A DNA stretch of 46,203 nucleotides, taken from positions 1 to 46,203 of IMG/VR virus record IMGVR_UViG_3300005077_000029; one strand, written 5' to 3'. This document shows, piece after piece, positions 569 through 46,203 of this stretch (positions are counted from its first letter, which is position 1; each line of letters opens with the position of its first letter). The position numbers and the translations under genes are program-made. Source of the stretch: a virus. The notes under the pieces are model-generated. The model was not told where the DNA came from and ran no database searches. It saw only the letters and a program-made list of their open reading frames with translations.

Positions 569-901
569 ATGATTCAACCGTTCATTTGGGGCAGGCCCTA
601 CACTCCCTTTGAGTGTTTTCTCAGTCGGCACAACACCCCCAGGTTGTCCCTCGCTTACTTCTGCCCTCATTGTGGGGAGGTCTGGGCACGCTTCATCGCC
701 CCTGGCCGGTCCTGGCAGGTGCTCACCCGAAACTGCGACCGCTGCGGCATCCCAAACACTCTAACCCCCGCAGGGTCTGTCCTTCTCCCTTACGATCCCT
801 ATTTTTACAAAGCTTTTCCGGTGGACATTCTCCGGCGGGAGGCTATTTTACATGGAGAGCTGTATGCACATAATCCCAATCACTTCAGTTTTTGTTCCTG
901 A
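569..901 (+). CDS. Zinc-ribbon protein, function unknown
   Basis: 110-aa ORF; AAGGAG 6 nt upstream of ATG 569; two CxxC pairs (CPHCGEVW and NCDRCG). Confidence 0.75.
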   Translation: MIQPFIWGRPYTPFECFLSRHNTPRLSLAYFCPHCGEVWARFIAPGRSWQVLTRNCDRCGIPNTLTPAGSVLLPYDPYFYKAFPVDILRREAILHGELYAHNPNHFSFCS

Positions 902-2138
902 CAACCGCCAGCGTCGAGTTTTTTCCGAGGACGATCTTAATGCACTCTCCGAATCCATACGAATCCACGGTCTTTATCACCCCATCGTGGTCTCTCCCGA
1001 GGGAGAAGGCTATCGGCTTGTTGCTGGAGAGCGCAGATATCGGGCAATTGCATCGCTTGCGGAACTCGACATTCCTTTCACCTGCGGAACGACTCTGGTG
1101 CGAGCAGGAGATATTGCTACGACACTCCTCTCCGAACTCGACGACCTGACCCTGCGGGAGATTGAGCTTGAAGAAAACACAATCCGGGTTGACCTGTCCT
1201 GGCAGGAGCGGGCGCAGGCAATCGCCGCCCTCGACGCCCTTCGGAAGGAGCAGGACCCCACCCATACCATCTCGGACACCTCCCAAGAAATCTTCGGGTA
1301 TCGCGGGGCCGGAGTTAGCCAGGTAAAAGAGTCCATCCTTTTAACCGAGGCTATCAAGACCGACCCCGAAGTCGCAAAAGCGAAGAGCCATACCGAGGCG
1401 GTGAAAATCTACGCTAAGAAAAAGGAGAAGGAGCACCGGGAGCGGGTTGCCGCAAGCATCTCCCTCACCGGGGTAGACCACTCCCTCATCGAAGGGGACT
1501 CCCTCACCATCCTCCCCACACTGAAAGCGGACCACTTTTCCTGCATCATCACCGATCCGCCTTATGGTGTTGGAGCTGATAACTTCGGCTCCCAGGCAAC
1601 CGTAACCCACACCTACCAAGACTCACCTGAGTACGCCGCCGCCTGCTTCCGCGCCCTGGCCGTCGAGGGCTTTCGCCTTTGCACTAACGAGGCGAGCGCA
1701 TACATCTTTCACTCCCCCGATACCTTCTTCCAGATTAAACAGATTTTCGAAGCCGCTGGATGGTGGGTATGGCCTCGTCCTTTGATCTGGGACAAGGGAA
1801 ACGGGATGCTCCCCTACCCCGACTACGGCCCTCGGTATTGCTACGAGTCAATCCTATTCGCCACCAAGGGCAAGCGGAAGATCATCCGCCCGGGCCAGCA
1901 GGACGTCCTCCGCTACCCATCCCCCACTGACAAAGTTCACGCAGCGCAGAAACCGGTTGAGCTTTACCAAGACCTCCTTTCCCGTAGTTGCTACCCTGGA
2001 GAGCGAATCCTCGATCCCTTTGCCGGGTCTGGCCCGGTGTTCACAGCAGCGGGGAACCTCAAGCTCCGGGCTACCGGGATCGAGCTTTCCCCCGAGCACA
2101 TCGCCTCTTGCCGTATCCGCATCAAGGAGGCTTTATGA
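864..2138 (+). CDS. ParB-like N-terminal domain fused to a beta-class N6A/N4C DNA methyltransferase
   Basis: The ORF is open from ATG 852, but ATG 864 is preferred because GGAGAG (854-859) precedes it. ParB/Srx-like block: IPITSVFVPDNRQRR..HGLYHPIVV..LVAGERRYRA. DPPY motif IV (IITDPPYGVG, ~1549-1569) lies upstream of AdoMet motif I (DPFAGSGP), which is the beta-class order. Stop TGA 2136-2138 overlaps the next ATG (ATGA). Confidence 0.85.
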   Translation: MHIIPITSVFVPDNRQRRVFSEDDLNALSESIRIHGLYHPIVVSPEGEGYRLVAGERRYRAIASLAELDIPFTCGTTLVRAGDIATTLLSELDDLTLREIELEENTIRVDLSWQERAQAIAALDALRKEQDPTHTISDTSQEIFGYRGAGVSQVKESILLTEAIKTDPEVAKAKSHTEAVKIYAKKKEKEHRERVAASISLTGVDHSLIEGDSLTILPTLKADHFSCIITDPPYGVGADNFGSQATVTHTYQDSPEYAAACFRALAVEGFRLCTNEASAYIFHSPDTFFQIKQIFEAAGWWVWPRPLIWDKGNGMLPYPDYGPRYCYESILFATKGKRKIIRPGQQDVLRYPSPTDKVHAAQKPVELYQDLLSRSCYPGERILDPFAGSGPVFTAAGNLKLRATGIELSPEHIASCRIRIKEAL

Positions 2139-4486
2139 TCAAGGTTCCCCCCTCTGGCCCGGCAACGGCCAGGGTAATGGTTGTGGGTGAGGCGCCGGGG
2201 GCAGACGAGGAATACCGACGAGTCCCCTTCGCTGGCCGGTCCGGGCAAGAACTCGACCGGATGCTTCACGAGGCCGGGTTTCTACGCTCTGAGTGTTTCG
2301 TCACCAATGTTATCCCTTACCACCCAAAGGATAATAATCTTGACCACTTCATCTTCCCAAAGAAAACAAACCCACCAGCCGACTTCGTGGCTTACCTTGG
2401 AGCTTTTGTCCACCCTTGCGTCGTTGAGGGAGTCACAGAGCTTAAAGCTGATATTGACCGAATCCGGCCAGACCTTATTATCGCTCTTGGTAACACGGCG
2501 CTTTGGGCTTTATCAGACGGAAGCAAGCACGGTGTCGGAACTTGGCGGGGAAGTCAACTATCCACCGATTCTGGGATTCGATATATCCCAACTTACCATC
2601 CTGCTGCAATTCTACGACAGTGGTCTTTCCGGGCCATTGCAGTAGCCGACTTCAAGCGAGGGGCTGCCTGGCTCGCGGGGAATGCGGAGCCTCTGAAGTG
2701 GGAGTTCACTGTCCGCCCTTCCTTGACCACTGTACTCCAGACCCTCGAATGGCTTTACTGCCATGCCGACCTCCACCCGCTTGAGCTCTCAGTCGACCTT
2801 GAAACTCGGGCGGGGCACATCGCTTGCTGCGGGATTGCCTGGTCAAGCTCCCAAGCCATCTGCATTCCCTTCATGTGCGTAGAGAATCCGGATGGTTATT
2901 GGTCCCTCGATGAGGAGGCCGCGATTATTCAGATCATCCGGCGGGTACTAACCCACCCGAACGTCTCGGTCACGGGCCAGAACTTTTCTTACGATGCTCA
3001 GTACATCCACCGCTACTGGCGCTTCACCCCTCGAGTCCGCGACGACACAATGCTTGCCCAGGGGTGTCTCTGGCCCGGTCTCCCCAAGGCGCTGGACTTC
3101 CTCGCCTCGATGTACTGCCGTCAGTACGTCTACTGGAAGGACGACGGGAAAGAGTGGAACCCAAACATCCCTGAAGATCAGCTCTGGGCGTACAACTGCG
3201 AAGACGCTTGCCGCACCTTCGAGGTTATGCAGGCCCTCCGCGAGAGCCTTGCCCGGACCAACCTGACCCATCAGTACTACCTCCTCATGCGTCGGTGGTT
3301 CCCAGTCCAGCAGATGATGCGCCGTGGAGTCGCCATCAACAAAGCCGAGCGCTCGAAAATGGGGATGGAGCTGATGCAGGCAATGGCAGAGCGCGAGCAA
3401 TGGTTCATCGACATCCTTGGCCACCCGCTCAAACCACGCTCCTCCAAACAAATGCAGGCCCTTTTCTACGACGACCTGCGTGTCCCCATCCAACGGAACA
3501 GGAAAACAGGAAATGCCTCACTCAACGACAAAGCCCTCACAAAAATACAGACCCGTTTGCCCTTACTATCCCCCCTTATCAAGACAATATCAGACTATCG
3601 CTCTATTGGAGTCTTTCTATCGACATTCGTCAGGGCACCTCTTGATATGGATGGAAGGATGCGATGCTCCTATAACATCGTCGGCGCTGAAACTTTTAGG
3701 TTTAGCTCCTCCGAAAACGCTTTTGGAAGCGGAACAAATTTGCAGAATATACCGAAAGGTAATGAGAAACCAAAACCGGGCGAGCTCTCCATGCCCAACA
3801 TCCGGTGGCTCTTCATCCCCGATCCAGGTTACACCATCGCAGATGCCGACCTCGACCGGGCCGATCTCCAAGTTGTAGTCTACGAGGCTGATGATGCAGA
3901 ACTCAAACAAATGCTACGCGAAGGAGTTGACATTCACTCCGAAAACGCTCGAACCCTCGGAATTTCGCGAGCTCTTGCTAAAAGCTGGGTTCATGGAACT
4001 AACTACGGAGGTGGGCCCCGTACTATGGCTATCAACTGTGGGATTACAGTGCATCAGGCTGAACTTATGCAACGCCGATGGTTTACAGCACACCCTGGAA
4101 TTAAAGCCTGGCATGATCGGACACTGCACTCTTTACAGACAACACGATCTGTGCGTAACAGTTTCGGTTTCCGCAGATTCTATTTTGATCGGGTTGAGGG
4201 CCTCCTCCCTGAGGCGCTCGCATGGATCCCCCAGTCAACCGTAGCCCACATCATCGACGAGGCGCTCTTTAACATCGCCCTGACCATTCCCGAAGTCCAC
4301 GTCCTTCTCCAGGTCCACGATTCCCTCGTATTCCAATACCCAACAAAGCTCGAGTCCTCCCTTCTCCCTCGCATCCGCCAAGCTTGCCTCATCACCGTCC
4401 CATACCCTGATCCGCTCATTATCCCCGTTGGATTAAAGACCTCCACGAAGTCGTGGGGGGAATGTTCAGATCACGCATGGGAGTAA
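2135..4486 (+). CDS. Family A DNA polymerase with N-terminal family-4 UDG-like domain and 3'-5' exonuclease domain
   Basis: ATG 2135 is preceded by AAGGAGG (2124-2130); the ORF track's upstream extension from 1988 is just the overlap with the methylase. UDG-like motifs: VVGEAPGADEE..PFAGRSGQELDRML and YHPAAILR. Exonuclease motifs: SVDLET, GQNFSYDAQY, YNCEDA. Polymerase motifs: A (DADLDRADLQVV), B (RALAKSWVHGTNYGGG), C (LQVHDSLVF). Confidence 0.9.
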   Translation: MIKVPPSGPATARVMVVGEAPGADEEYRRVPFAGRSGQELDRMLHEAGFLRSECFVTNVIPYHPKDNNLDHFIFPKKTNPPADFVAYLGAFVHPCVVEGVTELKADIDRIRPDLIIALGNTALWALSDGSKHGVGTWRGSQLSTDSGIRYIPTYHPAAILRQWSFRAIAVADFKRGAAWLAGNAEPLKWEFTVRPSLTTVLQTLEWLYCHADLHPLELSVDLETRAGHIACCGIAWSSSQAICIPFMCVENPDGYWSLDEEAAIIQIIRRVLTHPNVSVTGQNFSYDAQYIHRYWRFTPRVRDDTMLAQGCLWPGLPKALDFLASMYCRQYVYWKDDGKEWNPNIPEDQLWAYNCEDACRTFEVMQALRESLARTNLTHQYYLLMRRWFPVQQMMRRGVAINKAERSKMGMELMQAMAEREQWFIDILGHPLKPRSSKQMQALFYDDLRVPIQRNRKTGNASLNDKALTKIQTRLPLLSPLIKTISDYRSIGVFLSTFVRAPLDMDGRMRCSYNIVGAETFRFSSSENAFGSGTNLQNIPKGNEKPKPGELSMPNIRWLFIPDPGYTIADADLDRADLQVVVYEADDAELKQMLREGVDIHSENARTLGISRALAKSWVHGTNYGGGPRTMAINCGITVHQAELMQRRWFTAHPGIKAWHDRTLHSLQTTRSVRNSFGFRRFYFDRVEGLLPEALAWIPQSTVAHIIDEALFNIALTIPEVHVLLQVHDSLVFQYPTKLESSLLPRIRQACLITVPYPDPLIIPVGLKTSTKSWGECSDHAWE

Positions 4487-5680: not shown

Positions 5681-5931
5681 ACGAGAAGATGAAATTCAAC
5701 GTCCGAGACCTGGGGTATTGCTGTATCTTTGCCTGCCTCATGGCAAACCAACGCGAGAAGGAAGTTGTCCTGGCGGCTGAACTCCGCGTCAACCCCAGGA
5801 CAATTCGTGACTGGCGAAAGCGACTCCGGGACGGCCGGATTACCTGCGAAAAAGCTACTCCGTGTCTATGGCCCCGAAGCTTTCCACTGCCTGTTCATAC
5901 AGCTCCTGATGACTTTTCTGAACAGTCGTGA
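5677..5931 (+). CDS. Small HTH protein
   Basis: 84-aa ORF whose ATG overlaps the upstream stop (ATGA at 5677-5680). HTH-like segment VVLAAELRVNPRTIRDWRKRLRDG. The last 77 nt overlap the 3' end of the convergent giant gene. Confidence 0.6.
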   Translation: MNEKMKFNVRDLGYCCIFACLMANQREKEVVLAAELRVNPRTIRDWRKRLRDGRITCEKATPCLWPRSFPLPVHTAPDDFSEQS

Positions 5932-8900
5932 GTTCCTCCGAAGCCTTGACCGAGCGCTTTCTCGCGGCTTCGGATTGTTGCAGCTTTTTAACGGTGATCT
6001 GTAGGTTTTTACTCGGGACCTTCCGGTTAAATTCCGCAATTGCCTTGTTAACATCAGCAACCGCTTCCCTGTCACGAGCGATAACCTTAGCCTGATAGTA
6101 CGCATCTTTCAACACCTTCTGTCGTGTGGTCCAGTATTCCCGGGCTTCGTACTGCTCCGCTTTGATATTCTGCCCAGCGGACACTGAGGCCGGCTGAAAA
6201 CCCATCGCCTTGCCGACGATTTCCCAGGTTTGGATCTCCCGCATCCGGCCCGTCTTGGCGTCATAAGCAATCAGACCGCCCTGCGGCCCCCGAGCATCTC
6301 GCTCCGCCCATTGAGCCGCTTTGAAGATATTGCCCAGGCCTCCGGGCAATCTTGCCATCTGCTTTCCAGCGACATCGCCCATATCCAGTCCGGCCGTTCC
6401 GGCTTTCGAGAGCGCTCCGATGGTGTCCACCAGCCACTGAATATACCCACCACCAACACCGGAGAGTGCTGTTACACCAGCCCCAATTGCCTCTTTTGCT
6501 GTGCCGTGCTCCTCCGCCAGCACATCGGTTCCAGGTACAAGCCGGCCCTGGCCAATCGACCGGCTTAGATCGAACCCACCGAGGTTGAAAGTAGCCCCAC
6601 GCACCACCTTCATCGGGTCATCTACCCCAACTTCCATCAGCACTTCTCGTAGCGCCGTCCGGGCAGATTTCCCATTGTTGAACTTCTTAAACCCAGCATC
6701 GAGAAGGTCCATTACGTTCTCCATTCCCGGGAGCCCTTCGAGTCCAACAGCCAGAAGGTACAACAGTACCAGCTGTGCCGTATAGCTCCTGTACATCGCG
6801 GGGCTGGCCCGTCCCTCCATAGCCTCTTGCCGGCGCAGGCCAATTTCCAGCCCGCCATAGACGTTCCAGCTCGCATTCTGCACAAACGTCATGAAGATTG
6901 TGATAAAGCTCAGCAGCTTCCCACGCATAATCTGCGGGCGGTTCCCTTTGGTGTAGTCACCCTGCAACAGCCCCACCATCCGCACAGCTTCCTCATACCG
7001 CTCCTTCGGAGTAGCCTCTGGCTTGGTCTGCTGCATCACCTTGTAAGCGCCAACAAAAGTTGCCCGGCGGATCAGGAGCTCCGTCCCCCGGAACAGACTC
7101 ATCCCGGAGTCCACAATTCCCTTGAACACCTTCCCTGGCATACTCCCGCTCGCCATCCGGATCAACTGGCCACGAGTCGCCTGCGTCGCGAGGTAATACG
7201 CATAGCTCTGATCGAGGACGTTTTCGCTCTTCGCTTGCTCAAGGGCGAGACGCAACTCCGTCGGCTGGCCGTCCACCATCTCCCAGTTCGGGTCGGTAAG
7301 AGAAGTCAGTGCGGCCTCAGCGGAACCTGTCATAATCCTCCCGACAGTATCCCCCCACTCATGCGCCTGGGTTCTCACCGCCCCGCCAAATGCCTTGGCA
7401 AAGTTGAATCCCCCTTTCAAGTACCCAAGCTCCCGGTTCATCCAGAGCAAGGTGTGGGCGAGGCCCCAGAAGTTCAGCAGCGCAGTCTTCACACTCCCCC
7501 AGAGATACCCGATCGCCACAACCCCTCGGATGGTGGTGAGTTCCTCCTGCGGGTTCATGGCGTAATTCACCGTAGCCTTCATGAATCCGAGAGCCCGCTC
7601 AATCTCCGATTTGTTCTTCAGGAAGCTCTGATTATCCGGGTCATGCTCCGCCTGTGCAATCGCCATCTGGAGAAGCTTACGGTATTCCATCTTCGCGATG
7701 AAGTTTGCGTTCCGTAGGGCAAAGTCTGCATAGGTCTTGATAAAGTCAGTACTTCCCCCCTCCACCTGGAACCGCATGGGGTTGTAGGCTTTGAGCGGGG
7801 TTTTCTCGTATAACGACTGCATGGCTTCTTTGATCTGGGCCAGCTTCGCCTGGTCCTCCGGGTTCGCGGAGTCCAGCCCCAGGATAACCTCAACGTCATC
7901 GAGGAACTCCACCGGCAACCGCAGGAGCAGACCCTCTTCAGCCGTCCGCACAAAGGACTTCACCGACCCGCCAGGATATTTCGCTCGGGCTTTGAGCTCC
8001 AACTCCCGTGCTTCCCGGTCAGAGTCCGTAGCCCCTTCAAACAAGAGTTCCTTTCCTGCCTCATCGCTCGACCACACCTGCACCACGTTCTTCCCGAAGG
8101 CGGTCTGGGGCCAGAACGGATATCCCCGGAGGACGTTAAACGTCTGCACCACCTCCATGATGCTTTGATTCCGCTTGTCAGTCAGCCCCTCGGCCGCGTA
8201 CTTCTTCGTCCTCAGCCCGATCAGCACCAACCGCATTTCATCTTGCTGTCGCTGCAGCGCGTTCTTCGCCTCGATATAAATCCGGAGGAACCGCTTTCCA
8301 GAGACCGAGTCAGGATCAATCCCGATCTTCCTGATCTCCTCAATCAGCCTTGCCGTTGGGCGGTGCTCCCAATGGTTCTGGTCAACCTTGACAATCTCAG
8401 TCCAGTGTTCCCTTCCGCGATACTCCGCCAGGGTGAACTTCTGCATCCGGGCAAGGTTTTCCTTCCCGAACCATTGGAGCTGCCGCACCACCGCATCAGC
8501 GGGTGAATGCATCAAACCTACTTTCCGATAGAAGGCTTGCATCTCCGCTGCGAAGTTGTGCAGCCAAGTCCACTGAGGGTTCATGTGGGCTATTTGTTGT
8601 AGCTGCAACGCATACCACTGTGCATGGTACACTTTGTTTACAGCATCTGCGAGGACGGGTAATTGGAGTTTCTGCTTCAGTACCTCCCACTTCGTTGCCG
8701 TCTCATGCCCCTCCGGGTCAGTCCGGTCGTAGCGCATTTGGGAGCTTACCGTTCCTTCATGCTTGTAGTCCGGATCATACGTCGCACTTCCCACTCCGAA
8801 TGAAACGTACATCTGGTCCTGGAGCTCCGGCATGTCTACAATCACGCCGTCGTGTCCCTCAGCAATGGCCCGGGAGACATAGCCATCGAGCTCCCCAGGG

Positions 8901-11900
8901 AGAACTGTGTGCCCGCGAGACTCCACCCGCAGGGGGTTGGTAATCCTGGCCCAGCCTGGCAGAATCCGTGTGCGCCCAGCCATCTCCGTCATCGGGCCGG
9001 CCCAGAATAACGCGTGCATATAGTTCTGAAAACCGACCTGAATCTTCTGCCGAGAGCTCGGAGCCTTCATGTCCACTGCCGTATTATACATCAGCGTCAG
9101 GGGTTTCCCGTCAGCCTGGACCACCACAGAGCCCTCGAACCAGTTCTTAAACAGCTCCGATTCCACCCCTTTCAGCCGCCACTCTTTCCGGGCCTTGGCT
9201 TGGCCGATCTTCTCCGCAGGGATACGGTATCCTCGAGTAGTCGTGTCCTTCGCAAGAATCCTTACATCGTTATGGTTGTAGGTGACCACGTTCCAACTGT
9301 TCGTAGCCGGGGCAGGCGGCTTGGCGCCGGGGATATACTTCGGCCCCTTTGACCGCGCTGTATTATTCAGGTACACCACACCCGAGATTCCAACGCTGCT
9401 AAGGATTTTCGAGGCAACCTTGGCGGCCGGAATGGCGGGCTTGTTGCGATCTCTAGTTTTATAGGGGATTCCCTTTTCATAGGCTACCCACGCAACCAGC
9501 TCCCAATAAGCATCCTCCATAGTATTGTTAGGTGGTGCTATTCCCAAAGCTTGTTGAATTTCCTGACTGTACTCTTTTGGCAACTTGGGGTCAGCGGTTG
9601 CTCCATAGGATTTTACAAATGCTGCATCCAACCACGCTCTAAGCCGAGCTGCGGCAACAGAATCCTGAACAGGTGGTAGAAAATGCTGCGCAAACAAAAA
9701 CGGCTCTTTTTTAACCTGATGAGTTTCATTCCCAGCTGTAATAGCATCCCCGTATATAACTTGGACAATCAAATCATTTGGATCGGGCAGTCCATGTACA
9801 TACTGTCCAACATCCGCCTCCGTAAACTTAGAGGGGCTATTCTTCAGCAAATACATAGACAAAAATCCATTCTCATGGCGAATAGCAAGTCCGTGCGCTT
9901 TCAGATAATCCTTTGCAGCGGGAGAGTTGATGCTGGCGAGAAGTTCAGGAACCCCAAGCTGCGCCCGAGGCGTAAAGAACTCCCTGTACCTCTCCGGAAG
10001 CTTCGCCAGCGCCCGCTTCACATAGTCCGACTGATCCTCCCACCCCCAGTCCCACCGAGCGAAAGTATCAAACGGCTTCAGAATCTCAAAGTGCCGAACA
10101 TGGGGCTCTCCGTGGACGTAGCGCAGCTGCGCAGCCTTCACGAAGATCGGAGCGAGGAGCTTTACGTCCAGGTCCAGATCCAAGGTTTGTGCGATAGTCT
10201 CCCTTGCCCGGGCCAGGATCTCGGCTTTTTTGCTCAAATGGTCCTTCAAGGCTTCGCGGTCCAGCCGATCCTGCTCCTTCTTGTCAACCCGACGCACTTC
10301 CGGATTCGGCTTGCTACTGTAAACCACATTCGATATCACAGTATTCACGATATCGTCGAGGTCCAGCTCAGTACTAACAGGGTCCCCGCCGTTTTTCAGC
10401 ATCAGCAGCTCGCGCAGATCCTTGGTATTCGCTTCTTTGAGAATCCGCCTTCCGAGATCAGGTGTACCCCACTCATACCTTCTCCCTTGATAGACCATCT
10501 CATGGGGAGCGGACTGGGCCACATCATACCCAGCATAATGCCGGTAGGTCTTTGCCGCCTCACCAGAGTAGTGCCCCCATCCCTGCCAGATCGTCCCCTC
10601 GCCAGTCCCGATCTTCCGCAGATCCACCTTCCCAAGAGGGTTCTCTGGTGAAATAGTCCAGTTCGCCGTCCCGCCAGACCCGACCACCCAAGCGGGCTGC
10701 CAGCCTTTAAGATCAGCACTTTCCGCCTCGAGGATATCGAACTTAAGCCTTTCGCCGATCAGCGGCTCGATCTTGTTCACAAACTCCTCAAACTGCCCAG
10801 TTTTGAGCAGACCGGCCAGTTCCCTATGCTGCTTGCTGTTGGTCTTGACGACTCCGGTTTCACGAAGATTCTTCAGCGCAGCGGTCAGAACATTCCGGCG
10901 GGCCGGGCTCGTCCAGTCCACCTTCGGCTCATCCACTGGAGCTTCAGTGGCCGCCGTCTTTGCCCCCTTAACCAGGGTGTTTTTGCCCGCTTTATCGTTA
11001 AACTCGGCCGCCCGAAGGGCCAGCTCCTCCATCCAATCCTGTGTACTTTTCCCCGCCTCCACCAGCCCCATTGCGGAGAGCTTCCCGTAGAGCTCTTTCA
11101 GTCGGGCAAGCAACGGGCCAAGGAATTCCTGAATCCTCGCTTCCATCGAGCCAAGGAGGGTATCCGTATCAAAGCTCTTCGCGAACGTTGCATCGAGGAC
11201 CGCGCTCTTACCCAGCCGCTCCTCCGCAAACATCGTCTTCGCAACCTGCTCGGCCAGATACTCATCAAAGCTGAGCTGGTAGTTGATCCCCGCTTTCTGA
11301 GCGAAGCGTTTGGCCGAGAATCCGCCGCCGCCGAAGCCGAACCGCTGACGCATCACCGTCTTGTTTTGCAGCTTTGCCGGGGACAGCCAGCGCATGGCGG
11401 CTTCCCGCCCGCCGATCTTGCCGGTCAGGGTGTCATCCCGCAGAGACCTCCAGTCACTCAGAACCTGCTGCGCGGCAGGAGAGAGTTTCTGCGCGAGTGC
11501 CTCATCATAGGTCCCCTGGGTCAGGGCCAGCCGCATGGCGTTGTATTCCTGCGGGGTCAGCTCGGAGAAGAAAAAATCTTCAATCAGGGTGTGGCCGAAC
11601 TCATGGCCGAGGGAGCTGTACGCATTGACGTTTGCATCGCCTGAGTACTTCCCCGATCCCTTTTTGCTCTTGTGACTTCCAGACTGCTTTTGGTTCGTCA
11701 GATGCCGGGGGATAATGTAGTGCACCCCGTTATGCTTAAAGGAGGCCGCCTGCTCCCGCATCGCATCGCCGGTTACCCCAGTGTCCTCCGGGAGGATAAC
11801 ATACACCCCCTTGGGATTGAACTCGCGGGCCAGCTCATAAATATCCTGCACCACCGCTTTCATATAGTGCGACGGGCGGACGTGGGTATCCTCACCAGCC

Positions 11901-13192
11901 TGGATCACCACCGGCCCGGCAGAGAGATCAAAGTCCAGACTCGAAATCTCCCCGAGAGGTTTATTAACCAGCCCGGACATTCCAAGGGCCCGAACAACCC
12001 TCCGCTCTGACCGGGGAACGGCAGTGTTCTGGTCCTCGAAGTTGTGGGGGTTTCGAAGCACCTCATTCGACATCCCCGTGTCAGCAGCCTGCCGCACATC
12101 CAGCCCCTGAACCAGGTCCGAAAGCGTCTTCTCTACTGGCGGGGGAGTGGGTACGTCAATCTTCTCCCCCAGCGTCGCCCCGGAGTTCAGGCTTTCCTCA
12201 ATCGCGTCAATCAGTGCCTGGTTGCTGGCGATCTCCGTCTGCGTGTCAGTGAAGTTCACCTTGGCAGCCGGAGGGGGAGGTGTCTCGCGGGCCGGCTCAG
12301 TGGTTTCCTCCATAGGTGGTGTGGTTCCCCGGGGATTCCGTTCGATATTCCCCGGGGCATTCATACTATGAATTACAGGTGCCATAACCCCCGTTTGCAT
12401 ACCAGCCTGCAGTCCGGTAACGGCAATATCATGCCCCAATTCCGAGATAAACTGATTAAAGGGTTTATCTGGGGTTACGATTGCCTGCTCTGCAAACTTA
12501 TCGACAATGGTGTTCACTTCCTCACTGGCTATCTCACGACCAAGGGTTTTAGCGACCAGAGCCTTCGTCGATTCCTTTCCGAGTTCGGCAAACAGTTTCC
12601 CCATAGGCATCCACTCTGTAACCGCCTCCATAGGGCCGGAAATATTAGCGTATGCTGAGGCCTCCCCGGGATCAGCTCCCTGATCGGAGGCGGCGCCGTA
12701 CGCACCCTCACGAAACTGAAAAAGCCCCTGCTGAGCCAGTGGTAATGGGTTTCTTGTCACCAGTGACGGTGCCATATTTACCATTGAAGGTGCAACCCCC
12801 ATAGCCGCTTCCATTGGGATAGATGGATTAGGAACCTGCTCTTTGATAGACTGTGTCAGGTGCCCAGTTGCCGCCGCCCAATCATGGGTAATTTGCTGCT
12901 GGTCTAAAATCTTTTTCTGTTGGGCGTCGTACTCAGGAGTACCTGGTGTGTACTGAGTTAAGTCGGCCTGCATCGCATCCAGAAGCTCTTTGTGGGCTCC
13001 ATACTTTGCCCCAGCCAAAGAAGCATCAACACTTTCCCCCATAGTAGAGAAGAGACCCTTAACCCCCTTAACTGAAAGCAGGTCTGTTTGAGGGGGCTCT
13101 AGCTTGTCGATGTCCTCAACAATCCATTCGTCAGGTACATCGTCGGCGTATGTATAAACTTTTCCACTGTTACCCCGAACTTGCTTAACCAT
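5855..13192 (-). CDS. Giant (2445 aa) multidomain virion/ejection protein of the polyvalent-protein type
   Basis: Uninterrupted 7.3-kb ORF with AAAGGAA upstream of ATG 13192; it is the last gene of the structural arm. HExxH motif SLGHEFGHTLIED (His530-His534, nt 11588-11605). Block GISGVVYLNN..SWNVVTYNHNDVRIL (nt ~9240-9391). Block SELFKNWFEGSVVVQADGKPLTLMYNT..GHDGVIVDM (from nt 9160 down to ~8750). Hydrophobic helices in the C-terminal third (e.g. LLSFITIFMTFVQNASW at ~6845-6915, YTAQLVLLYLLAVGL). Confidence 0.85.
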   Translation of the reverse strand: MVKQVRGNSGKVYTYADDVPDEWIVEDIDKLEPPQTDLLSVKGVKGLFSTMGESVDASLAGAKYGAHKELLDAMQADLTQYTPGTPEYDAQQKKILDQQQITHDWAAATGHLTQSIKEQVPNPSIPMEAAMGVAPSMVNMAPSLVTRNPLPLAQQGLFQFREGAYGAASDQGADPGEASAYANISGPMEAVTEWMPMGKLFAELGKESTKALVAKTLGREIASEEVNTIVDKFAEQAIVTPDKPFNQFISELGHDIAVTGLQAGMQTGVMAPVIHSMNAPGNIERNPRGTTPPMEETTEPARETPPPPAAKVNFTDTQTEIASNQALIDAIEESLNSGATLGEKIDVPTPPPVEKTLSDLVQGLDVRQAADTGMSNEVLRNPHNFEDQNTAVPRSERRVVRALGMSGLVNKPLGEISSLDFDLSAGPVVIQAGEDTHVRPSHYMKAVVQDIYELAREFNPKGVYVILPEDTGVTGDAMREQAASFKHNGVHYIIPRHLTNQKQSGSHKSKKGSGKYSGDANVNAYSSLGHEFGHTLIEDFFFSELTPQEYNAMRLALTQGTYDEALAQKLSPAAQQVLSDWRSLRDDTLTGKIGGREAAMRWLSPAKLQNKTVMRQRFGFGGGGFSAKRFAQKAGINYQLSFDEYLAEQVAKTMFAEERLGKSAVLDATFAKSFDTDTLLGSMEARIQEFLGPLLARLKELYGKLSAMGLVEAGKSTQDWMEELALRAAEFNDKAGKNTLVKGAKTAATEAPVDEPKVDWTSPARRNVLTAALKNLRETGVVKTNSKQHRELAGLLKTGQFEEFVNKIEPLIGERLKFDILEAESADLKGWQPAWVVGSGGTANWTISPENPLGKVDLRKIGTGEGTIWQGWGHYSGEAAKTYRHYAGYDVAQSAPHEMVYQGRRYEWGTPDLGRRILKEANTKDLRELLMLKNGGDPVSTELDLDDIVNTVISNVVYSSKPNPEVRRVDKKEQDRLDREALKDHLSKKAEILARARETIAQTLDLDLDVKLLAPIFVKAAQLRYVHGEPHVRHFEILKPFDTFARWDWGWEDQSDYVKRALAKLPERYREFFTPRAQLGVPELLASINSPAAKDYLKAHGLAIRHENGFLSMYLLKNSPSKFTEADVGQYVHGLPDPNDLIVQVIYGDAITAGNETHQVKKEPFLFAQHFLPPVQDSVAAARLRAWLDAAFVKSYGATADPKLPKEYSQEIQQALGIAPPNNTMEDAYWELVAWVAYEKGIPYKTRDRNKPAIPAAKVASKILSSVGISGVVYLNNTARSKGPKYIPGAKPPAPATNSWNVVTYNHNDVRILAKDTTTRGYRIPAEKIGQAKARKEWRLKGVESELFKNWFEGSVVVQADGKPLTLMYNTAVDMKAPSSRQKIQVGFQNYMHALFWAGPMTEMAGRTRILPGWARITNPLRVESRGHTVLPGELDGYVSRAIAEGHDGVIVDMPELQDQMYVSFGVGSATYDPDYKHEGTVSSQMRYDRTDPEGHETATKWEVLKQKLQLPVLADAVNKVYHAQWYALQLQQIAHMNPQWTWLHNFAAEMQAFYRKVGLMHSPADAVVRQLQWFGKENLARMQKFTLAEYRGREHWTEIVKVDQNHWEHRPTARLIEEIRKIGIDPDSVSGKRFLRIYIEAKNALQRQQDEMRLVLIGLRTKKYAAEGLTDKRNQSIMEVVQTFNVLRGYPFWPQTAFGKNVVQVWSSDEAGKELLFEGATDSDREARELELKARAKYPGGSVKSFVRTAEEGLLLRLPVEFLDDVEVILGLDSANPEDQAKLAQIKEAMQSLYEKTPLKAYNPMRFQVEGGSTDFIKTYADFALRNANFIAKMEYRKLLQMAIAQAEHDPDNQSFLKNKSEIERALGFMKATVNYAMNPQEELTTIRGVVAIGYLWGSVKTALLNFWGLAHTLLWMNRELGYLKGGFNFAKAFGGAVRTQAHEWGDTVGRIMTGSAEAALTSLTDPNWEMVDGQPTELRLALEQAKSENVLDQSYAYYLATQATRGQLIRMASGSMPGKVFKGIVDSGMSLFRGTELLIRRATFVGAYKVMQQTKPEATPKERYEEAVRMVGLLQGDYTKGNRPQIMRGKLLSFITIFMTFVQNASWNVYGGLEIGLRRQEAMEGRASPAMYRSYTAQLVLLYLLAVGLEGLPGMENVMDLLDAGFKKFNNGKSARTALREVLMEVGVDDPMKVVRGATFNLGGFDLSRSIGQGRLVPGTDVLAEEHGTAKEAIGAGVTALSGVGGGYIQWLVDTIGALSKAGTAGLDMGDVAGKQMARLPGGLGNIFKAAQWAERDARGPQGGLIAYDAKTGRMREIQTWEIVGKAMGFQPASVSAGQNIKAEQYEAREYWTTRQKVLKDAYYQAKVIARDREAVADVNKAIAEFNRKVPSKNLQITVKKLQQSEAARKRSVKASEELTTVQKSHQELYEQAVESFGAIDTE
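12327..12357. repeat. 31-bp CCCCGGGG dyad element, intragenic copy
   Basis: CCCCGGGGattc-cgttcga-TATTCCCCGGGG; same 12+7+12 geometry as the intergenic copies. It lies in the Pro/Thr-rich linker (..NAPGNIERNPRGTTPP..) of the giant gene. Confidence 0.7.
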
Positions 13193-14867: not shown

Positions 14868-15809
14868 TTAAAGACTTGCCAAAGCACCAAGTGCTGTTAA
14901 ACCCCAGCCAACAGGACCGCCAGCCCAGCCACTTCCACCGGCAATCAGCTGTGCAATACTCTGGCCCGAGGCAGCGCCGGACAAAGCACTCATCAGTGTG
15001 CTCGGGCGCGAACCCGCGCTCGCGACACTGGTGCTTCCAGAGCTTCCACCACCAAAGACCATGTTAGCGTAGTTCTGTAGATTCTGCCACGGTGCATTCA
15101 GCTCCCAGAGGCGTTGTTGCTCTGCATAAGCAGCTTGATCGAGGTCACGGCCTTCCTGGCTCGCTCCAACTGCCGCCAACGTTTGCGCCGGAAGCTGTGC
15201 GGACTGAAGGGCCTGCGGGGCAAGGGCAAGGGTTTTCGTCATGGTATCCTGGCCCGTCTCATACGCCTTATTCAGCATTGAGCTTGTGGTGTCCCCAATC
15301 GCCTGTGCGTATCGACCAGCGGCCAGCCCCTCTGCAATACCCTGCCGAGATCCACCCACTCCGCCAGCTTGTACCGCCCCTTGGCGAATCTGACTCATCA
15401 CACCGCCAGGGTCTGTGTACGACTGGGTAATCGGGTTAATTGCAGCTGTGATTGCGGATTGCAGATACGGGTTGTTGTTCACGTCCATCGCATCTGTCAG
15501 GCCATAATTCACCGCTTTACTTAGCGAAGCCGCATCACCTTTCTGGGTGTTCACCAACCCCAGGAGATAGTTCTCCGCGTCCAGAGTAGATTGACTCGGG
15601 GTAAGCGGAGCCGACCCGGGGTAGGTCTGCCAGAGCGGGCCAGAGGCTCGATATAGCCTATCCGCTTCGTCCATTAAAGCGGTTCGCCGCGCAACCTCTT
15701 CCGGAGAATAGTTCTGCACAGTCTGTGTGCTACTCCCCCCACCACCGCCACCACCACTGAGTTGAAGCCGAACGGCCCAGGTTACGGCCGCCAAGAGAAT
15801 CTTAAGCAT
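14868..15809 (-). CDS. Putative internal virion/ejection protein with hydrophobic N-terminus and Gly7 tract
   Basis: 313-aa ORF with AAGGAG upstream; MLKILLAAVTWAVRLQLSGGGGGGG..; Gly/Ala/Gln-rich C-terminus with a hydrophobic tail. Confidence 0.6.
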   Translation of the reverse strand: MLKILLAAVTWAVRLQLSGGGGGGGSSTQTVQNYSPEEVARRTALMDEADRLYRASGPLWQTYPGSAPLTPSQSTLDAENYLLGLVNTQKGDAASLSKAVNYGLTDAMDVNNNPYLQSAITAAINPITQSYTDPGGVMSQIRQGAVQAGGVGGSRQGIAEGLAAGRYAQAIGDTTSSMLNKAYETGQDTMTKTLALAPQALQSAQLPAQTLAAVGASQEGRDLDQAAYAEQQRLWELNAPWQNLQNYANMVFGGGSSGSTSVASAGSRPSTLMSALSGAASGQSIAQLIAGGSGWAGGPVGWGLTALGALASL

Positions 15810-16242
15810 TTTGACGCTCCTTTATATAATCCGCAAACCGTTCTGGAATCATTTCCTTCATAGCTTCCTGTAAAATAGGAACAGCTTCCTCGATTCCGTG
15901 AAGTTTCGTTATGAGAAAGATAAACACATGAGCCACTGCATATCGCAGTGTATGTGCAATTTCCAGGCCGTGGCTGTCCAGTGTTTCTTCGTATGCATTA
16001 GCAGTGAGGTACCCAGCAATCGCAGTTGAGAAAAGTGTCCGCATCTCCTGGCCCAGGGCTTGATAAACCGGGTTCTCCGGGATAACAACCAAAGCGAGGA
16101 TGAAGGCTCTGTTGATCTGTTCCGTGGAAACAGCTTTATCCTTGTCTACCAGGTCATCCCAGATATGAGACAGCTCCACAAAATGATTAAAGAGATCCCG
16201 CGCGGCGGTGTTCCCTTTGAACCAGGTAAGATAATCTGTCAT
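15802..16242 (-). CDS. All-helical 146-aa protein, possible fibre-associated chaperone
   Basis: AGGAG upstream; follows the LamG fibre gene and shares its low GC content; function inferred from position only. Confidence 0.45.
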   Translation of the reverse strand: MTDYLTWFKGNTAARDLFNHFVELSHIWDDLVDKDKAVSTEQINRAFILALVVIPENPVYQALGQEMRTLFSTAIAGYLTANAYEETLDSHGLEIAHTLRYAVAHVFIFLITKLHGIEEAVPILQEAMKEMIPERFADYIKERQNA

Positions 16243-16254
16243 AGCAACTCCTGT

Positions 16255-18147
16255 TTAGAACTCCGCTGTCGGCACTGTGTAGCTACCTGTATATACAGCC
16301 GTGTCAGAAATACGAATTTCGTCCATCTCACCCTTGAGATAGTGGGCGAATCCGTTAGAGATGAAACCGATGTGGATTCCATCACTGCTCTTCGGCATGT
16401 CTGTAGATGATGTATCCGTATAGTTCCCGTCATAGCACAGGAAGTATTTGCCAGTAGAAGCATTGTAACCGCAGGCAATGTGGTGCCATGTGGCTGTGCC
16501 TTCATTGAACGGGTGACTGTAAGTTACAAAGATGTTTACCCCGTCTACTTTTAATACCAGCCGGTCTTCGTCCAGGTATATATGGAATCCTTGGTTAGTC
16601 CCGTCGAGAGACCCGAGGAAATAATACTGCTCTGTTCCTGTATAGCCAGCCCCTATGTCAATGCGGACAAAGAACTCTGCGGTCCAGCTTACACTGTTGA
16701 AGTTCCATACATCTTCGCAGTCCGTTATGTGGATAACTGAGGAAGTGCCGTTGAATGACAGTGATCCACTTCCGAATTTCTGCGTTGTCGTGTCGTAGGT
16801 TATATCTGTTGCGGATACAGTATGGCCCCACTCGTCAACCGTGTCCCCGTTACCGTGCATCAATAGATAGAAACCACCTGTGGATCCACAATTATTAGTC
16901 TTTATCAAGACGTCATCTATGTAGCCTGTCCATTTGTAGCTCGTAGCATCCTCGTGCCCAATGTATTTTATATTTAGTGCGAGGTTTGACGAATACGCAG
17001 TATATGTGATCCCGTCTACACATACATATACCTTGCCATCACCAATATCATTCCAGAATTTCACGGAATGCCATGTGTCATCTGATGAGGGAGTTATACC
17101 AATGCCAGCATCTCCAAGCGGGCGGCTAAGGCATGAAAGAACTATATTAGGATAGTTACCAAAGCCAACACTAAAGAGTGTTACCTGTCCGCTATATACA
17201 CCAATAGAAACCTTGGCATTCGCACCAAGACCACTGTGGTAATAACTGTAATAAACCTCCCACTCGTCAGTGATGTCGGCGGTTATATTTGTATCAATAG
17301 ACAGGTAAGAACTACCGTCTAAGTATAAAGATTTATTCCCGACTAGCACCTGTGTCGTTGACAATTGAGGAGTGCCAACGGCTGTTGTCGTTACGTTCGA
17401 ACAAGCATCCTCCATATCCGTTTCAAACGGGTACTTATAGACATTAAAAGCACACGCTAAACTACTCGTCGATCCACATGTAAGCGGACAACACGTTCTG
17501 GCCGCGGTTGGGACTGTATCTCCTGCTATATAGTCATTAGTTATCCCTATATCATCCATGTAACCATTTAGATAGTATTCAGGCCCACCACTCCCAGTAG
17601 ATGCCCCAAAAGCATAAACATTCAAGTCTAGTCTATCTCCAGAGGTGATAAGACTTCCGTTTATCCAAAGTTTAAGTAAGTTATTATCTACATCATTGCT
17701 TAAATGTAGATAATTCCACCCAGCAGAAACACTGGTATTTGACCAGTCAGTATCAGAGGTGGGGCGATTCGATTCTGACATTAAAAACTGGACAGCGGTC
17801 GGAGTGCCGCCGAGAATATTGAGGTAAATCCCGGTAACTCTTTCTCCGCCTGCATCCTCATTGACATATAGAGTTGCATCAAGCGGTGTGTAGAACCAAA
17901 AGGATAGAGTCCATTTGTCTGTGTAGTCGTAAGATATTGGAGTATTGACATGGAAATAAGAACTGCCATCAAACTCTGCCGCGTCACCATACTTAGCCGT
18001 AGCTGATGTAGTTACACCGCTATTGGTTACTGGATAGTTTCGGCAGTCTTCCTCAATATCCGCATCAAACGAAAAAACATAATCAGCACAAAACGTGCTT
18101 ACTGCAGCCAGATAAGGAATAAAGCAGCTTCCGGGCACGATCATCAT
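16255..18147 (-). CDS. Tail fibre/receptor-binding protein with three LamG (concanavalin-like) repeats
   Basis: 630-aa ORF with an ATGA overlap to the upstream gene. The pattern recurs three times: AEFDGSSYFHVNT..WTLSFWFY, LYLDGSSYLSIDT..WEVYYSYY, LSFNGTSSVIHIT..WTAEFFVR. GC is markedly low. Confidence 0.7.
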   Translation of the reverse strand: MMIVPGSCFIPYLAAVSTFCADYVFSFDADIEEDCRNYPVTNSGVTTSATAKYGDAAEFDGSSYFHVNTPISYDYTDKWTLSFWFYTPLDATLYVNEDAGGERVTGIYLNILGGTPTAVQFLMSESNRPTSDTDWSNTSVSAGWNYLHLSNDVDNNLLKLWINGSLITSGDRLDLNVYAFGASTGSGGPEYYLNGYMDDIGITNDYIAGDTVPTAARTCCPLTCGSTSSLACAFNVYKYPFETDMEDACSNVTTTAVGTPQLSTTQVLVGNKSLYLDGSSYLSIDTNITADITDEWEVYYSYYHSGLGANAKVSIGVYSGQVTLFSVGFGNYPNIVLSCLSRPLGDAGIGITPSSDDTWHSVKFWNDIGDGKVYVCVDGITYTAYSSNLALNIKYIGHEDATSYKWTGYIDDVLIKTNNCGSTGGFYLLMHGNGDTVDEWGHTVSATDITYDTTTQKFGSGSLSFNGTSSVIHITDCEDVWNFNSVSWTAEFFVRIDIGAGYTGTEQYYFLGSLDGTNQGFHIYLDEDRLVLKVDGVNIFVTYSHPFNEGTATWHHIACGYNASTGKYFLCYDGNYTDTSSTDMPKSSDGIHIGFISNGFAHYLKGEMDEIRISDTAVYTGSYTVPTAEF

Positions 18148-21192: not shown

Positions 21193-21828
21193 TTAATCTC
21201 CACGAGATCGCGAGCGGTTAGTTTCTTCCCTCGCAATGGTTTCATTACGCAGTCTGGTCTGCGCTAAAATCTCTTCCTGCGCAAAGACTGCAAGAAGTTC
21301 CGTATCCCGGAGGTAGGAAGCCAACCGGCGGCCTGTCCGTGCCATGAGGAGGTCAGGTGCCCAGGTTAGCCAAAGGTTGGTAGCCCCCACAGCCATGGTG
21401 CTGGGAAGTGTATCTTGCGCGAAATACCGCAGTTTCAGGGTGTAGGCTGCGTCCGGCAGTGGGAAGATCTGAAACTCCTGGCCGGTCAGAGTGTACCCCG
21501 CTGGGGCGCCCTGGGTATCACCCCAGTAAAGAATCGAGGCATCATACTCCCCCTTTTCGAGTTCCGTAACTCCCCCATTCGCATCAATATAGCGAAGGGA
21601 ATCATCGTCAGCCTCAAGAAGGAAATCAGCCGGGACAGCCACTTCTCGCGTAGCCGCTACTGTAGTCAGGGTAGTCTCACTTGAAAGCAAGAACCAAGGA
21701 GGCTCACCACCACGCTCGAGCTCGAACTGGGTCTGATCCATTTCAAGTGGAATCAAAACGTCCAGGTCAGCATCGGTACGTGAACCAAGCCGAAACTTCA
21801 ACAATGTCAATGCGGCACTTAAAAGCAT
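21193..21828 (-). CDS. Virion structural protein (adaptor-like), family unknown
   Basis: 211-aa ORF with AAGGGG upstream; stop is 2 nt before the next start. Confidence 0.5.
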   Translation of the reverse strand: MLLSAALTLLKFRLGSRTDADLDVLIPLEMDQTQFELERGGEPPWFLLSSETTLTTVAATREVAVPADFLLEADDDSLRYIDANGGVTELEKGEYDASILYWGDTQGAPAGYTLTGQEFQIFPLPDAAYTLKLRYFAQDTLPSTMAVGATNLWLTWAPDLLMARTGRRLASYLRDTELLAVFAQEEILAQTRLRNETIAREETNRSRSRGD

Positions 21829-28141: not shown

Positions 28142-28159
28142 TTTATTGCTCCTTGAAAA

Positions 28160-28192
28160 GCCCCGGGGAATACTACACATATTCCCCGGGGC
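28160..28192 (-). terminator. Perfect 13-bp-stem hairpin (31-bp dyad element) after the capsid gene; terminator or mRNA stabiliser
   Basis: GCCCCGGGGAATA-ctacaca-TATTCCCCGGGGC. On the minus-strand transcript it is followed by CTTTTC, then AAGGAG and ATG 28141. Confidence 0.7.
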
Positions 28193-28195
28193 GCA

Positions 28196-28226
28196 TATTA
28201 CACCAGTTCCGTATTACACCAGTTCC
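28196..28226. repeat. Tandem 15-nt direct repeat spanning the capsid stop codon
   Basis: tattacaccagttcc occurs at 28196-28210 and 28212-28226 (period 16); the second copy encodes ..ELV-stop of the capsid gene. Confidence 0.9.
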
Positions 28227-30280: not shown

Positions 30281-30536
30281 GTTCAGACTCCTTCACCAGT
30301 TGATCAAGTTCATACTTCGCCTGTTCCAGCAATGTTGAAACAGTCCCTACCACCGACTCCAGCCCCACAACAAAACCCTTCTGGAACTCCATGGAGAACT
30401 GATTCTCCGGAGTAGTGGGGGTACGGATGATTCCAGATACACGATCCTGAACCTGCTCCGCAAGCACCGGAGTTACATACTCCCCGAAGAGTTCCTCCAG
30501 CCGCGTTAACCCCTCAATACGTTCTTCTAAGCTCAT
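30273..30536 (-). CDS. Hypothetical 87-aa head-module protein
   Basis: ATGA overlap with the portal stop; 8-nt overlap with the scaffold start. Confidence 0.6.
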   Translation of the reverse strand: MSLEERIEGLTRLEELFGEYVTPVLAEQVQDRVSGIIRTPTTPENQFSMEFQKGFVVGLESVVGTVSTLLEQAKYELDQLVKESEHE

Positions 30537-46103: not shown

Positions 46104-46203
46104 TTAAAATGTCCGTGTTCGATCCTCAATCCTTCATGCAAGCTCAATTCACCGAAGCCAACGAAACCGAGTTCAAGGCTCCCGCCGAAGGCGAGTACCC
46201 CGG
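46104..46203. repeat. Contig-end direct repeat, copy 2
   Basis: Identical to bases 1-100. Confidence 0.95.

Follow-up and report, generated by a model that had tools for sequence, protein, structure and literature searches.

The virus record IMGVR_UViG_3300005077_000029 of the IMG/VR collection, analyzed here over its entire length of 46,203 nucleotides (nt) and referred to as the window, carries a giant gene (5855..13192, minus strand) whose product is probably a podoviral internal virion (ejection) protein of the polyvalent kind, equipped with an effector cargo. The product of 2445 amino acids (aa) belongs to classes that have already been described, namely the polyvalent proteins, the tail-700/PLxRFG proteins, and the extended internal virion protein D proteins, and nothing in it overturns the current understanding; what is new is a diverged member with a particular cargo, made of an unclassified HExxH domain and of a conserved ADP-ribosyltransferase (ART) domain devoid of its histidine. 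An earlier note on this DNA had described a single open reading frame (ORF) of 2445 aa that takes up 16% of the genome and closes the structural arm, which agrees with the present annotation (15.9% of the contig, last gene of the arm). It had also proposed an injected multi-effector protein fused to a channel or tape-measure-like part, a proposal that is sustained by the homology to polyvalent proteins and by a C-terminal module of the tail-700/gp16 type and that fails as regards the tape measure.

The assignment is carried by the domain homologies of the giant protein, by its mosaic architecture among homologues, and by the position of its gene. The features of the protein, in coordinates of the window, are the following.

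5855..13192, minus strand: whole giant ORF (2445 aa and the stop codon), which closes the structural arm and converges on the primase gene that ends at 5680
12323..13192, minus strand: N-terminal constant region (aa 1-290), with no family match and conserved in all close homologues
12041..12322, minus strand: Pro/Thr/Glu-rich linker and a short conserved stretch (aa 291-384), from sequence and alignment
10988..12040, minus strand: putative zincin-like metallopeptidase region (aa 385-735), from a structural model and the alignment of homologues
11591..11605, minus strand: HEFGH (aa 530-534), invariant in 11 homologues
11246..11263, minus strand: EYLAEQ (aa 644-649), which may hold the third zinc ligand
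9170..10705, minus strand: variable central cassette (aa 830-1341), from pairwise comparison; contains the small module at aa ~845-905
9242..9538, minus strand: module A (aa 1219-1317; GISGVVYLNN...WNVVTYNHNDVRIL), a diverged copy of a recurrent polyvalent-protein module
8798..9169, minus strand: diverged ART-PolyVal domain (aa 1342-1465), from forward and reciprocal profile searches
5858..8737, minus strand: C-terminal constant module (aa 1486-2445), nearly all helical and resembling internal virion protein D (T7 gp16)
5909..8116, minus strand: match to NCBIfam NF032893 'tail-700' PLxRFG (aa 1693-2428), 182 bits

Domain architecture and mosaicism

The C-terminal module connects the giant protein to a protein that is listed as a virion component. 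NF032893 matches aa 1693-2428 well above its cutoff (182 bits against 100, E 1.9e-53) and along model positions 3-679 of 681. The eponymous PLxRFG motif reads PQTAFG in the giant protein (aa 1695-1700, nt 8093-8110), which differs from other tail-700 proteins in the loss of Arg and keeps P, F, and G but neither L nor R; more distant homologues retain the Arg, for example as PFSRFG or PFMRFG. PHROG 11358, which represents giant proteins of F116-type phages, matches the C-terminus (E 7e-40), and when the protein is compared with known phages by tblastn, only its C-terminal part finds matches (23-26% identity), in F116/H66-type Pseudomonas phages, Mel-JY34, Caulobacter phages, and others, where the annotations range from 'hypothetical' and 'DNA methylase' to 'DarB-like antirestriction protein' and 'putative internal virion polymerase'. 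Moreover, a profile of aa 1486-2445 built from 14 homologues aligns with residues 3096-3777 of the 3787-aa gp60 of phage H66 (E 2e-101), a protein with the Pfam domains LPD23, LPD3, and methyltransferase, which its GenBank record classes as structural and describes as 'verified by mass spectrometry as part of the virion'. H66 gp60, phiRIO-1 gp37, epsilon15 gp17, and the C-terminus of N4 gp50 have been united in an extended T7 gp16 (internal virion protein D) family by comparison of hidden Markov models (HMM-HMM, E 8e-19), and H66 gp60, like N4 gp50, joins the gp16-type module to domains that need to act inside the cell (Hardies et al. 2016; PMC4819975).

Predicted structures point in the same direction. 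The AlphaFold2 (AF2) model of aa 1486-2445 is nearly all helical (mean pLDDT 74), and Foldseek retrieves 66 matches at E<=1e-3 among predicted viral structures, the best of which (E 6.5e-28, TM ~0.63) extends over ~1000 columns. These matches are the last pieces of giant proteins named methyltransferase/methylase, helicase, SNF2 ATPase, or 'large polyvalent protein-associated domain-containing protein', and they include a protein of Roseobacter phage CRP-4 annotated as 'Internal virion protein D' (E 1.7e-8, TMq 0.42) as well as a 1416-aa protein of Vibrio phage ICP2 (E 5e-8). The literature and the predicted structures together support the reading of the C-terminal ~950 aa as a gp16-type (internal virion protein D) module. 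Recent phage papers still describe the PLxRFG protein or domain as uncharacterised or of unknown or regulatory function; it could instead be read as an internal-virion/ejection module, with a gain in annotation. A word-indexed homologue search with the C-terminal 754 aa added only five new fragments, and the 981-aa homologue P0019 was rejected as a short stand-alone version of the module since its ORF is cut by the start of the contig.

Directly upstream of the gp16-like module, aa 1342-1465 are a true homologue of the ART-PolyVal domain, as judged from profile homology found in both search directions. Specifically, a profile of aa 1200-1485, made from the giant protein and its orthologues P0002, P0006, and P0007, was run exhaustively with HMMER against 1.84 billion representative proteins and yielded 1295 matches at E<=1e-3 (198 at E<=1e-10), finding ART-PolyVal proteins down to E 1.8e-67. 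The top matches are giant proteins with up to 17 repeat matches to the part equal to aa ~1339-1465, and the Pfam ART-PolyVal model (PF18760) scores far above threshold at the matching coordinates in all nine sampled matches. In the reciprocal direction, a profile of 169 canonical ART-PolyVal copies recognizes aa 1342-1465 with 58.3 bits; it gives a single significant copy, and further hidden copies in the giant protein were rejected on this ground. The block formed by FKNWFEGS (aa 1348), MYNT (aa 1368-1371), and GHDGVIVD (aa 1446), which had been likened to modules of the form FxxWFGxSxVVDxxGxPxxVYHGT, hence reflects real homology, and family profiles tie the segment to ART-PolyVal even though the Pfam model itself is silent on it. 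When the alignment of aa 1200-1485 was submitted to the word-indexed search, zero matches were returned, the query protein included, a result that is read as a limitation of the tool given the 1295 HMMER matches; the negatives of that search are untrustworthy for this type of query.

The active site of ART-PolyVal domains is formed by a His in strand 1, a Tyr in strand 2, and an Asp in strand 5 (Iyer et al. 2017; PMC5512222). In the profile alignment, the canonical PLVVYHGT reads PLTLMYNT in the giant protein. The catalytic His, present in 98% of the 169 canonical copies, is replaced by Tyr1369 (Phe in P0002, P0006, and P0007), the adjacent Gly (96% of canonical copies) by Asn1370, which is kept in all four orthologues, and the Asp of GYDG (95%), taken here as the strand-5 Asp, is retained as D1448, and the alignment gives no reliable position for the strand-2 Tyr; the more distant homologues P0009, P0010, and P0012 retain the His. 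What had been described as a His-to-Asn change is, in the alignment, a change of His to Tyr accompanied by one of Gly to Asn. This His is the NAD+-binding residue of H-Y-[EDQ]-type ARTs, and its loss makes the loss of ADP-ribosyltransferase activity likely. The domain is most likely non-catalytic and no longer able to ADP-ribosylate, so that the suspicion of altered or lost catalysis was a reasonable one.

The N-terminal half contains a second candidate effector. The HEFGH motif is invariant in 11 of 11 aligned homologues, down to 22% identity, and E644, E648, and Q649 (E..AEQ, ~110 residues downstream) are likewise invariant in the alignment, with E644 or E648 as candidate third zinc ligand. 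In the AF2 model of aa 385-735 (pLDDT 71), HEFGH lies in a long helix (model residues 134-157) that follows a helix and the strands 79-82, 99-103, and 106-110, an order of elements expected for the zincin core fold as described in PMC5512222. Pfam searches of the whole protein and of ten overlapping 340-aa windows at E<=10 returned only noise and a weak match to DUF4344, a 'putative metallopeptidase' family (E 0.008-0.1; 16 bits, below the cutoff of 29.6); this sub-threshold match recurs at the same place in 8 of 10 family members, with a best E of 4e-4. The domain is likely, but not proven, to be a zincin-type metallopeptidase. The motif had been placed at nt 11588-11605, a span that includes one codon too many (the true one is 11591-11605), and the call of a peptidase domain went further than the sub-threshold DUF4344 match (E 0.008) and the Foldseek comparison, devoid of significant matches, would allow.

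The remaining recognizable parts are small modules that recur in polyvalent proteins. GISGVVYLNN (aa 1268) and WNVVTYNHNDVRIL (aa 1300) belong to module A, whose canonical form is 'AS..L..GIPGIKYLDGSSRS..G.YNYVIFD..DV.I'; the resemblance to G-I-x-G-I-x-Y...NYVVF modules, pointed out in the earlier note, proved exact, as the block aligns to the recurrent polyvalent motif. A profile of aa 1219-1317 matches 27 places in 148 retrieved polyvalent giants (best E 1.3e-7), usually 50-120 residues upstream of an ART-PolyVal domain. That module A might be the C-terminal half of a preceding ART copy was rejected, since none of the 27 matches overlaps an ART match. The small module at aa ~845-905 also has counterparts in 21 of the 148 giants, and in two of them (P0095 and P0151), the order is the same as here, with this module followed by module A and ART. 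No Pfam model matches module A in the proteins tested. In all, Pfam lacks models for two modules that recur in polyvalent proteins and for one conserved HExxH domain.

The comparison of homologues uncovers a mosaic with constant ends and an exchanged center. Pairwise BLAST against 13 homologues indicates that aa ~1-820 and ~1400-2445 are conserved, with 40-64% identity among close relatives; the first ~820 and the last ~1040 aa are kept, and the center is swapped. One central cassette is common to the giant protein, P0006, P0007, and, in part, P0002. P0003, P0004, P0005, and P0008 have unrelated sequence in its place, with only non-significant ART remnants detected by the 169-copy profile. In the cassette of P0009 and P0010, LPD23 is accompanied by another HExxH (HEVQH) and by an ART-like segment in which the His is retained. 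The similarity of P0011 to the giant protein is confined to the first ~280 aa, with 55% identity over aa 35-279, and to the tail-700 module. Among the homologues, LPD23, LPD39, and ART-PolyVal domains are found. Constant ends and an exchangeable middle fit a delivery scaffold with variable cargo, and parallel mosaicism is known from other polyvalent proteins (Iyer et al. 2017; PMC5512222). The retention of the ends and the exchange of the middle within related metagenomic phages mark the middle as the part under arms-race selection.

As a separate observation, the second HExxH motif reads LLHEVQHAIQ and lies after LPD23 at aa ~960-990 of P0009 and aa ~1000-1030 of P0010; these two proteins would therefore carry two putative metallopeptidase sites.

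Relation to known virion and polyvalent proteins

The closest described counterparts are the giants of H66 (gp60) and other F116-type phages (Hollowayvirus), which have the same C-terminal ~730-aa module with polyvalent domains upstream and which, for H66 gp60, are encoded in the late/virion gene region, the H66 gene adjoining the lysis genes. The identity with H66 gp60 is, however, ~23% and restricted to the C-terminal module, and the cargo differs: the 3787-aa H66 protein bears a methyltransferase, LPD23, and LPD3, whereas the giant protein bears HEFGH and a His-less ART-PolyVal domain. The phages themselves are also of different types: the present one, which resembles Mel-JY34, encodes PolA, a ParB-methyltransferase, and a DUF3987 primase in its 46-kb genome.

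The giant gene resembles those of the T7 gp16 family in being the last and largest of a run of internal-virion/ejection genes and in coding for a long helical body, in addition to the similarity of the predicted structure to internal virion protein D and the HMM-HMM link drawn in the literature via the F116 group. It departs from them in having neither a significant direct profile match to gp16 or phiRIO-1 gp37 nor a match to a solved structure, and in having no detected N-terminal lytic transglycosylase domain; such a domain is present in T7 gp16 and is not universal in the extended family. N4 and DEV offer a precedent for enzymatic cargo fused to a gp16-type module, with the difference that the cargo of the giant protein is a peptidase-like and a pseudo-ART domain and not a polymerase.

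With the polyvalent proteins described by Iyer, Burroughs, Anand, de Souza, and Aravind (2017; PMC5512222), the giant protein shares the multidomain build in a virion-gene context, the mosaic exchange of domains, an ART-PolyVal-type domain of the H-Y-D clade, an HExxH domain, and the recurrent small modules. Unlike in these proteins, its ART domain is single and lacks the His that the canonical copies keep, its HExxH region finds no above-threshold Pfam metallopeptidase, and most of its N-terminal 1200 aa have no LPD match in Pfam. Lastly, DarB and DdrB of phage P1 are large head-packaged proteins that are injected with the DNA, and one homologue of the C-terminal module carries the annotation 'DarB-like antirestriction protein'. 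In contrast to them, the giant protein has no methyltransferase, helicase, or ParB domain detectable with Pfam or NCBIfam and no match in the PADLOC defense-system library, and P1 is a myovirus without a gp16-type module.

Proposed mechanism and rival explanations

In the proposed mechanism, the C-terminal ~950 residues would constitute a helical delivery part of the internal-virion-protein-D type, which would be assembled, along with the small upstream ejection proteins, into the capsid core above the portal, by analogy with T7 gp16, N4/DEV gp50/gp71, and H66 gp60; in DEV, gp73, gp72, and gp71 (the virion RNA polymerase) have been proposed as equivalents of T7 gp14, gp15, and gp16 (PMC11445570). 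At infection, the giant protein would exit via the tail, the C-terminal module becoming the cytoplasm-proximal end of a trans-envelope DNA conduit, and the N-terminal ~1480 residues would enter the cell as cargo, with or ahead of the DNA. This cargo would comprise the constant N-terminal region, the HEFGH domain, and the exchangeable polyvalent cassette that ends in the ART-PolyVal domain. The putative peptidase would most likely cleave the polyprotein or a host target after delivery, in line with the processing role proposed for the metallopeptidases of polyvalent proteins (Iyer et al. 2017; PMC5512222), and the ART-PolyVal part, deprived of the NAD-binding His, would most likely perform no ADP-ribosylation. 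If correct, this would make the protein a clear natural example of how podoviruses deliver effector domains by attaching them to an ejection protein of the gp16 type.

Several results weigh against this reading. As for the gp16-type module, comparison by hhalign of the shallow aa 1486-2445 profile with five T7-like gp16 proteins (probability 0.3%) and with phiRIO-1 gp37 (1%) is not significant, the same profile finds nothing among PDB sequences, Foldseek retrieves nothing significant for the C-terminal model from the PDB (best E 0.79), where T7 core structures are present, and no SLT or lysozyme (lytic transglycosylase) family is found in the giant protein by Pfam or NCBIfam. Since the direct profile tests are not significant, the link to gp16 is drawn from the literature and from the comparison of predicted structures. 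As for the cargo, PF18760 gives no match in the whole protein or in 340-aa windows, even at E<=10 (gathering score 31.2 bits), and the relative P0012 reaches 28.1 bits, below the same cutoff. No curated peptidase family scores above threshold in Pfam, which keeps the zincin assignment sub-threshold, and the model of aa 385-735 has no significant Foldseek match in the PDB (best E 0.44), with lethal factor and aminopeptidase N at ranks 5-6 and a non-significant E of ~0.9; the family profile of the HEFGH region likewise finds nothing among PDB sequences. Finally, contact with a membrane is not announced by the hydropathy of the protein. The earlier note had counted at least three strongly hydrophobic helices in the last ~550 residues and had spoken of a membrane-associated C-terminus. 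On the Kyte-Doolittle scale, the best 19-residue window of the whole protein (aa 2139-2157) scores 1.55, three other C-terminal segments score 1.0-1.2, and the top window of shuffled copies averages 1.8, so that no segment of the protein is hydrophobic enough for a transmembrane call. With a hydropathy no greater than that of shuffled sequence, it is the gp16 analogy from which a membrane association would have to be argued.

These gaps leave room for the view that the protein is a structural core or ejectosome component and nothing else, in which the N-terminal 'cargo' would have decayed into a non-catalytic filler or spacer and would add mass or length to the capsid core or conduit, with HEFGH as a structural or metal-binding element and not a proteolytic one. 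The loss of the catalytic His in the giant protein and its three orthologues would be in keeping with such decay, as would the mere ART remnants of P0003, P0004, P0005, and P0008 and the absence of any Pfam enzyme family above threshold anywhere in the protein; moreover, the metallopeptidase-containing region of the N4 virion RNA polymerase is needed for encapsidation, and that protein is not processed (Iyer et al.; PMC5512222). Filler would hardly account, however, for a HEFGH and a downstream E..AEQ that stay invariant even at 22% overall identity, as is typical of a maintained active site, nor for the exchange of whole cassettes between close relatives, which looks like selection on the function of the cargo and not on its bulk, and we regard a purely structural role as unlikely. 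The idea that the protein is not packaged at all and acts as a late cytoplasmic enzyme of anti-defense or host takeover, encoded beside structural genes, draws on the many polyvalent-type domains that also exist as free-standing proteins (Iyer et al. 2017; PMC5512222). It is very improbable in view of the virion listing of H66 gp60, which has the same C-terminal module, of the gene position, kept in every relative examined, and of the close linkage of the gene to the structural arm: the preceding gene of the arm has the same orientation and ends 18 nt before the start codon of the giant gene, a spacing that suggests co-transcription.

The large size, the helical C-terminus, and the position at the end of the arm would also suit a length determinant resembling a tape measure or a virion RNA polymerase of the N4 type, and one GenBank homologue is indeed labelled 'putative internal virion polymerase'. 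Yet portal and adaptor both belong to the SU10 type of podoviruses, annotation searches reveal no tail tube, sheath, or chaperone genes in the structural arm and no similarity of the giant protein to a tape-measure family in PHROGs or elsewhere, and no RNA polymerase domain is found in Pfam, NCBIfam, or PHROGs; the search of PDB sequences with the giant protein gives nothing meaningful, its only matches to RNA polymerase subunits having an E of 0.086. Both readings were rejected on gene context and missing defining domains, their residual probability being close to nil, and with them goes the tape-measure-like part of the earlier proposal.

Within the preferred reading of a packaged ejection protein with effector cargo, a more speculative extension concerns the two cargo domains. 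The His-less ART domain, with its Tyr/Phe and Asn in place of His-Gly in four orthologues of 35-39% identity over this region, may be no dead relic and may have been recruited to a new role, for instance to bind nucleotide signals of host defense systems, derived from NAD or not, or to dock the cargo to the ejectosome, and the HEFGH domain may be an unclassified zincin family that releases the cassette after ejection. The constant ends and the swappable center would then make up a delivery platform that could serve to inject chosen proteins. We hold this extension to be quite doubtful.

Genome setting

The giant ORF begins with ATG and is preceded, 8 nt 5' of the start, by a ribosome-binding site (AAGGA). 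Positions 1-99 of the window are repeated exactly at 46105-46203, and this 99-bp terminal overlap indicates a circularly closed (or terminally redundant) assembly of ~46,104 bp, that is, a complete genome. The minus-strand arm runs from the large terminase through portal, capsid, adaptor, tail/fibre genes, and four small ORFs to the giant gene, and its main identified genes are listed here.

32422-33882, minus strand: large terminase
30533-32431, minus strand: portal, SU10-type
28214-29479, minus strand: major capsid protein
21193-21828, minus strand: adaptor, SU10-type
14868-15809, minus strand: small ORF, DNA ejection candidate (PHROG 4287 'DNA ejection protein', E 1e-11)

The SU10-type portal and adaptor and the gene layout identify the phage, at the level of sequence, as a podovirus. 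The giant gene had been said to follow three ejection-type proteins; the match to PHROG 4287 upholds this for the ORF at 14868-15809, and the other three of the four small ORFs upstream of the giant gene have no functional hint in its favor.

Facing the giant gene is a replication module on the plus strand, in which a ParB-methyltransferase fusion is accompanied by DNA polymerase A and by a primase of the DUF3987 type. The contig of P0012 and Microcystis phage Mel-JY34 have the same gene layout, and in Mel-JY34 the counterpart at the position of the giant gene is a protein of 1894 aa. A 20-kb part of the window finds no megablast match among phage genomes, which implies that there is no close sequenced relative among the deposited phage genomes.

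Some further observations concern other genes of the window. The fusion at 852-2138 (plus strand) joins a ParB-N domain to an N6/N4 DNA methyltransferase, and the gene and its neighbors (PolA with a UDG domain, DUF3987 primase, AAA_24, and PD-(D/E)XK nuclease) are syntenic in the metagenomic relatives and in Mel-JY34; by this shared synteny, the replication module defines a phage group with few cultured members. The DNA polymerase ORF (1988-4486, plus strand) is listed with a TTG start that overlaps the methyltransferase gene by ~150 nt, and its true start is probably further downstream.

In the structural arm, the GC content falls to 0.454 at 16001-18000, compared with ~0.55-0.60 elsewhere, and the dip coincides with a 630-aa ORF (16255-18147, minus strand) that ends in a ConA-like lectin/glucanase domain (Laminin_G_3, E 5e-15) and looks like a horizontally exchanged receptor-binding protein. 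Beside the capsid gene, a 571-aa ORF (26465-28180, minus strand) matches a glycosyltransferase PHROG in its N-terminal part (E 1e-24) and a PHROG of unknown function in its C-terminal part, an unusual position for an enzyme inside a structural arm. Lastly, a 696-aa ORF (22426-24516, minus strand) matches over the same stretch the FCCH domain of ubiquitin-activating enzyme E1 (E 1e-10) and a 'major tail protein' PHROG, and this stretch is probably a small beta-domain common to phage tail proteins.

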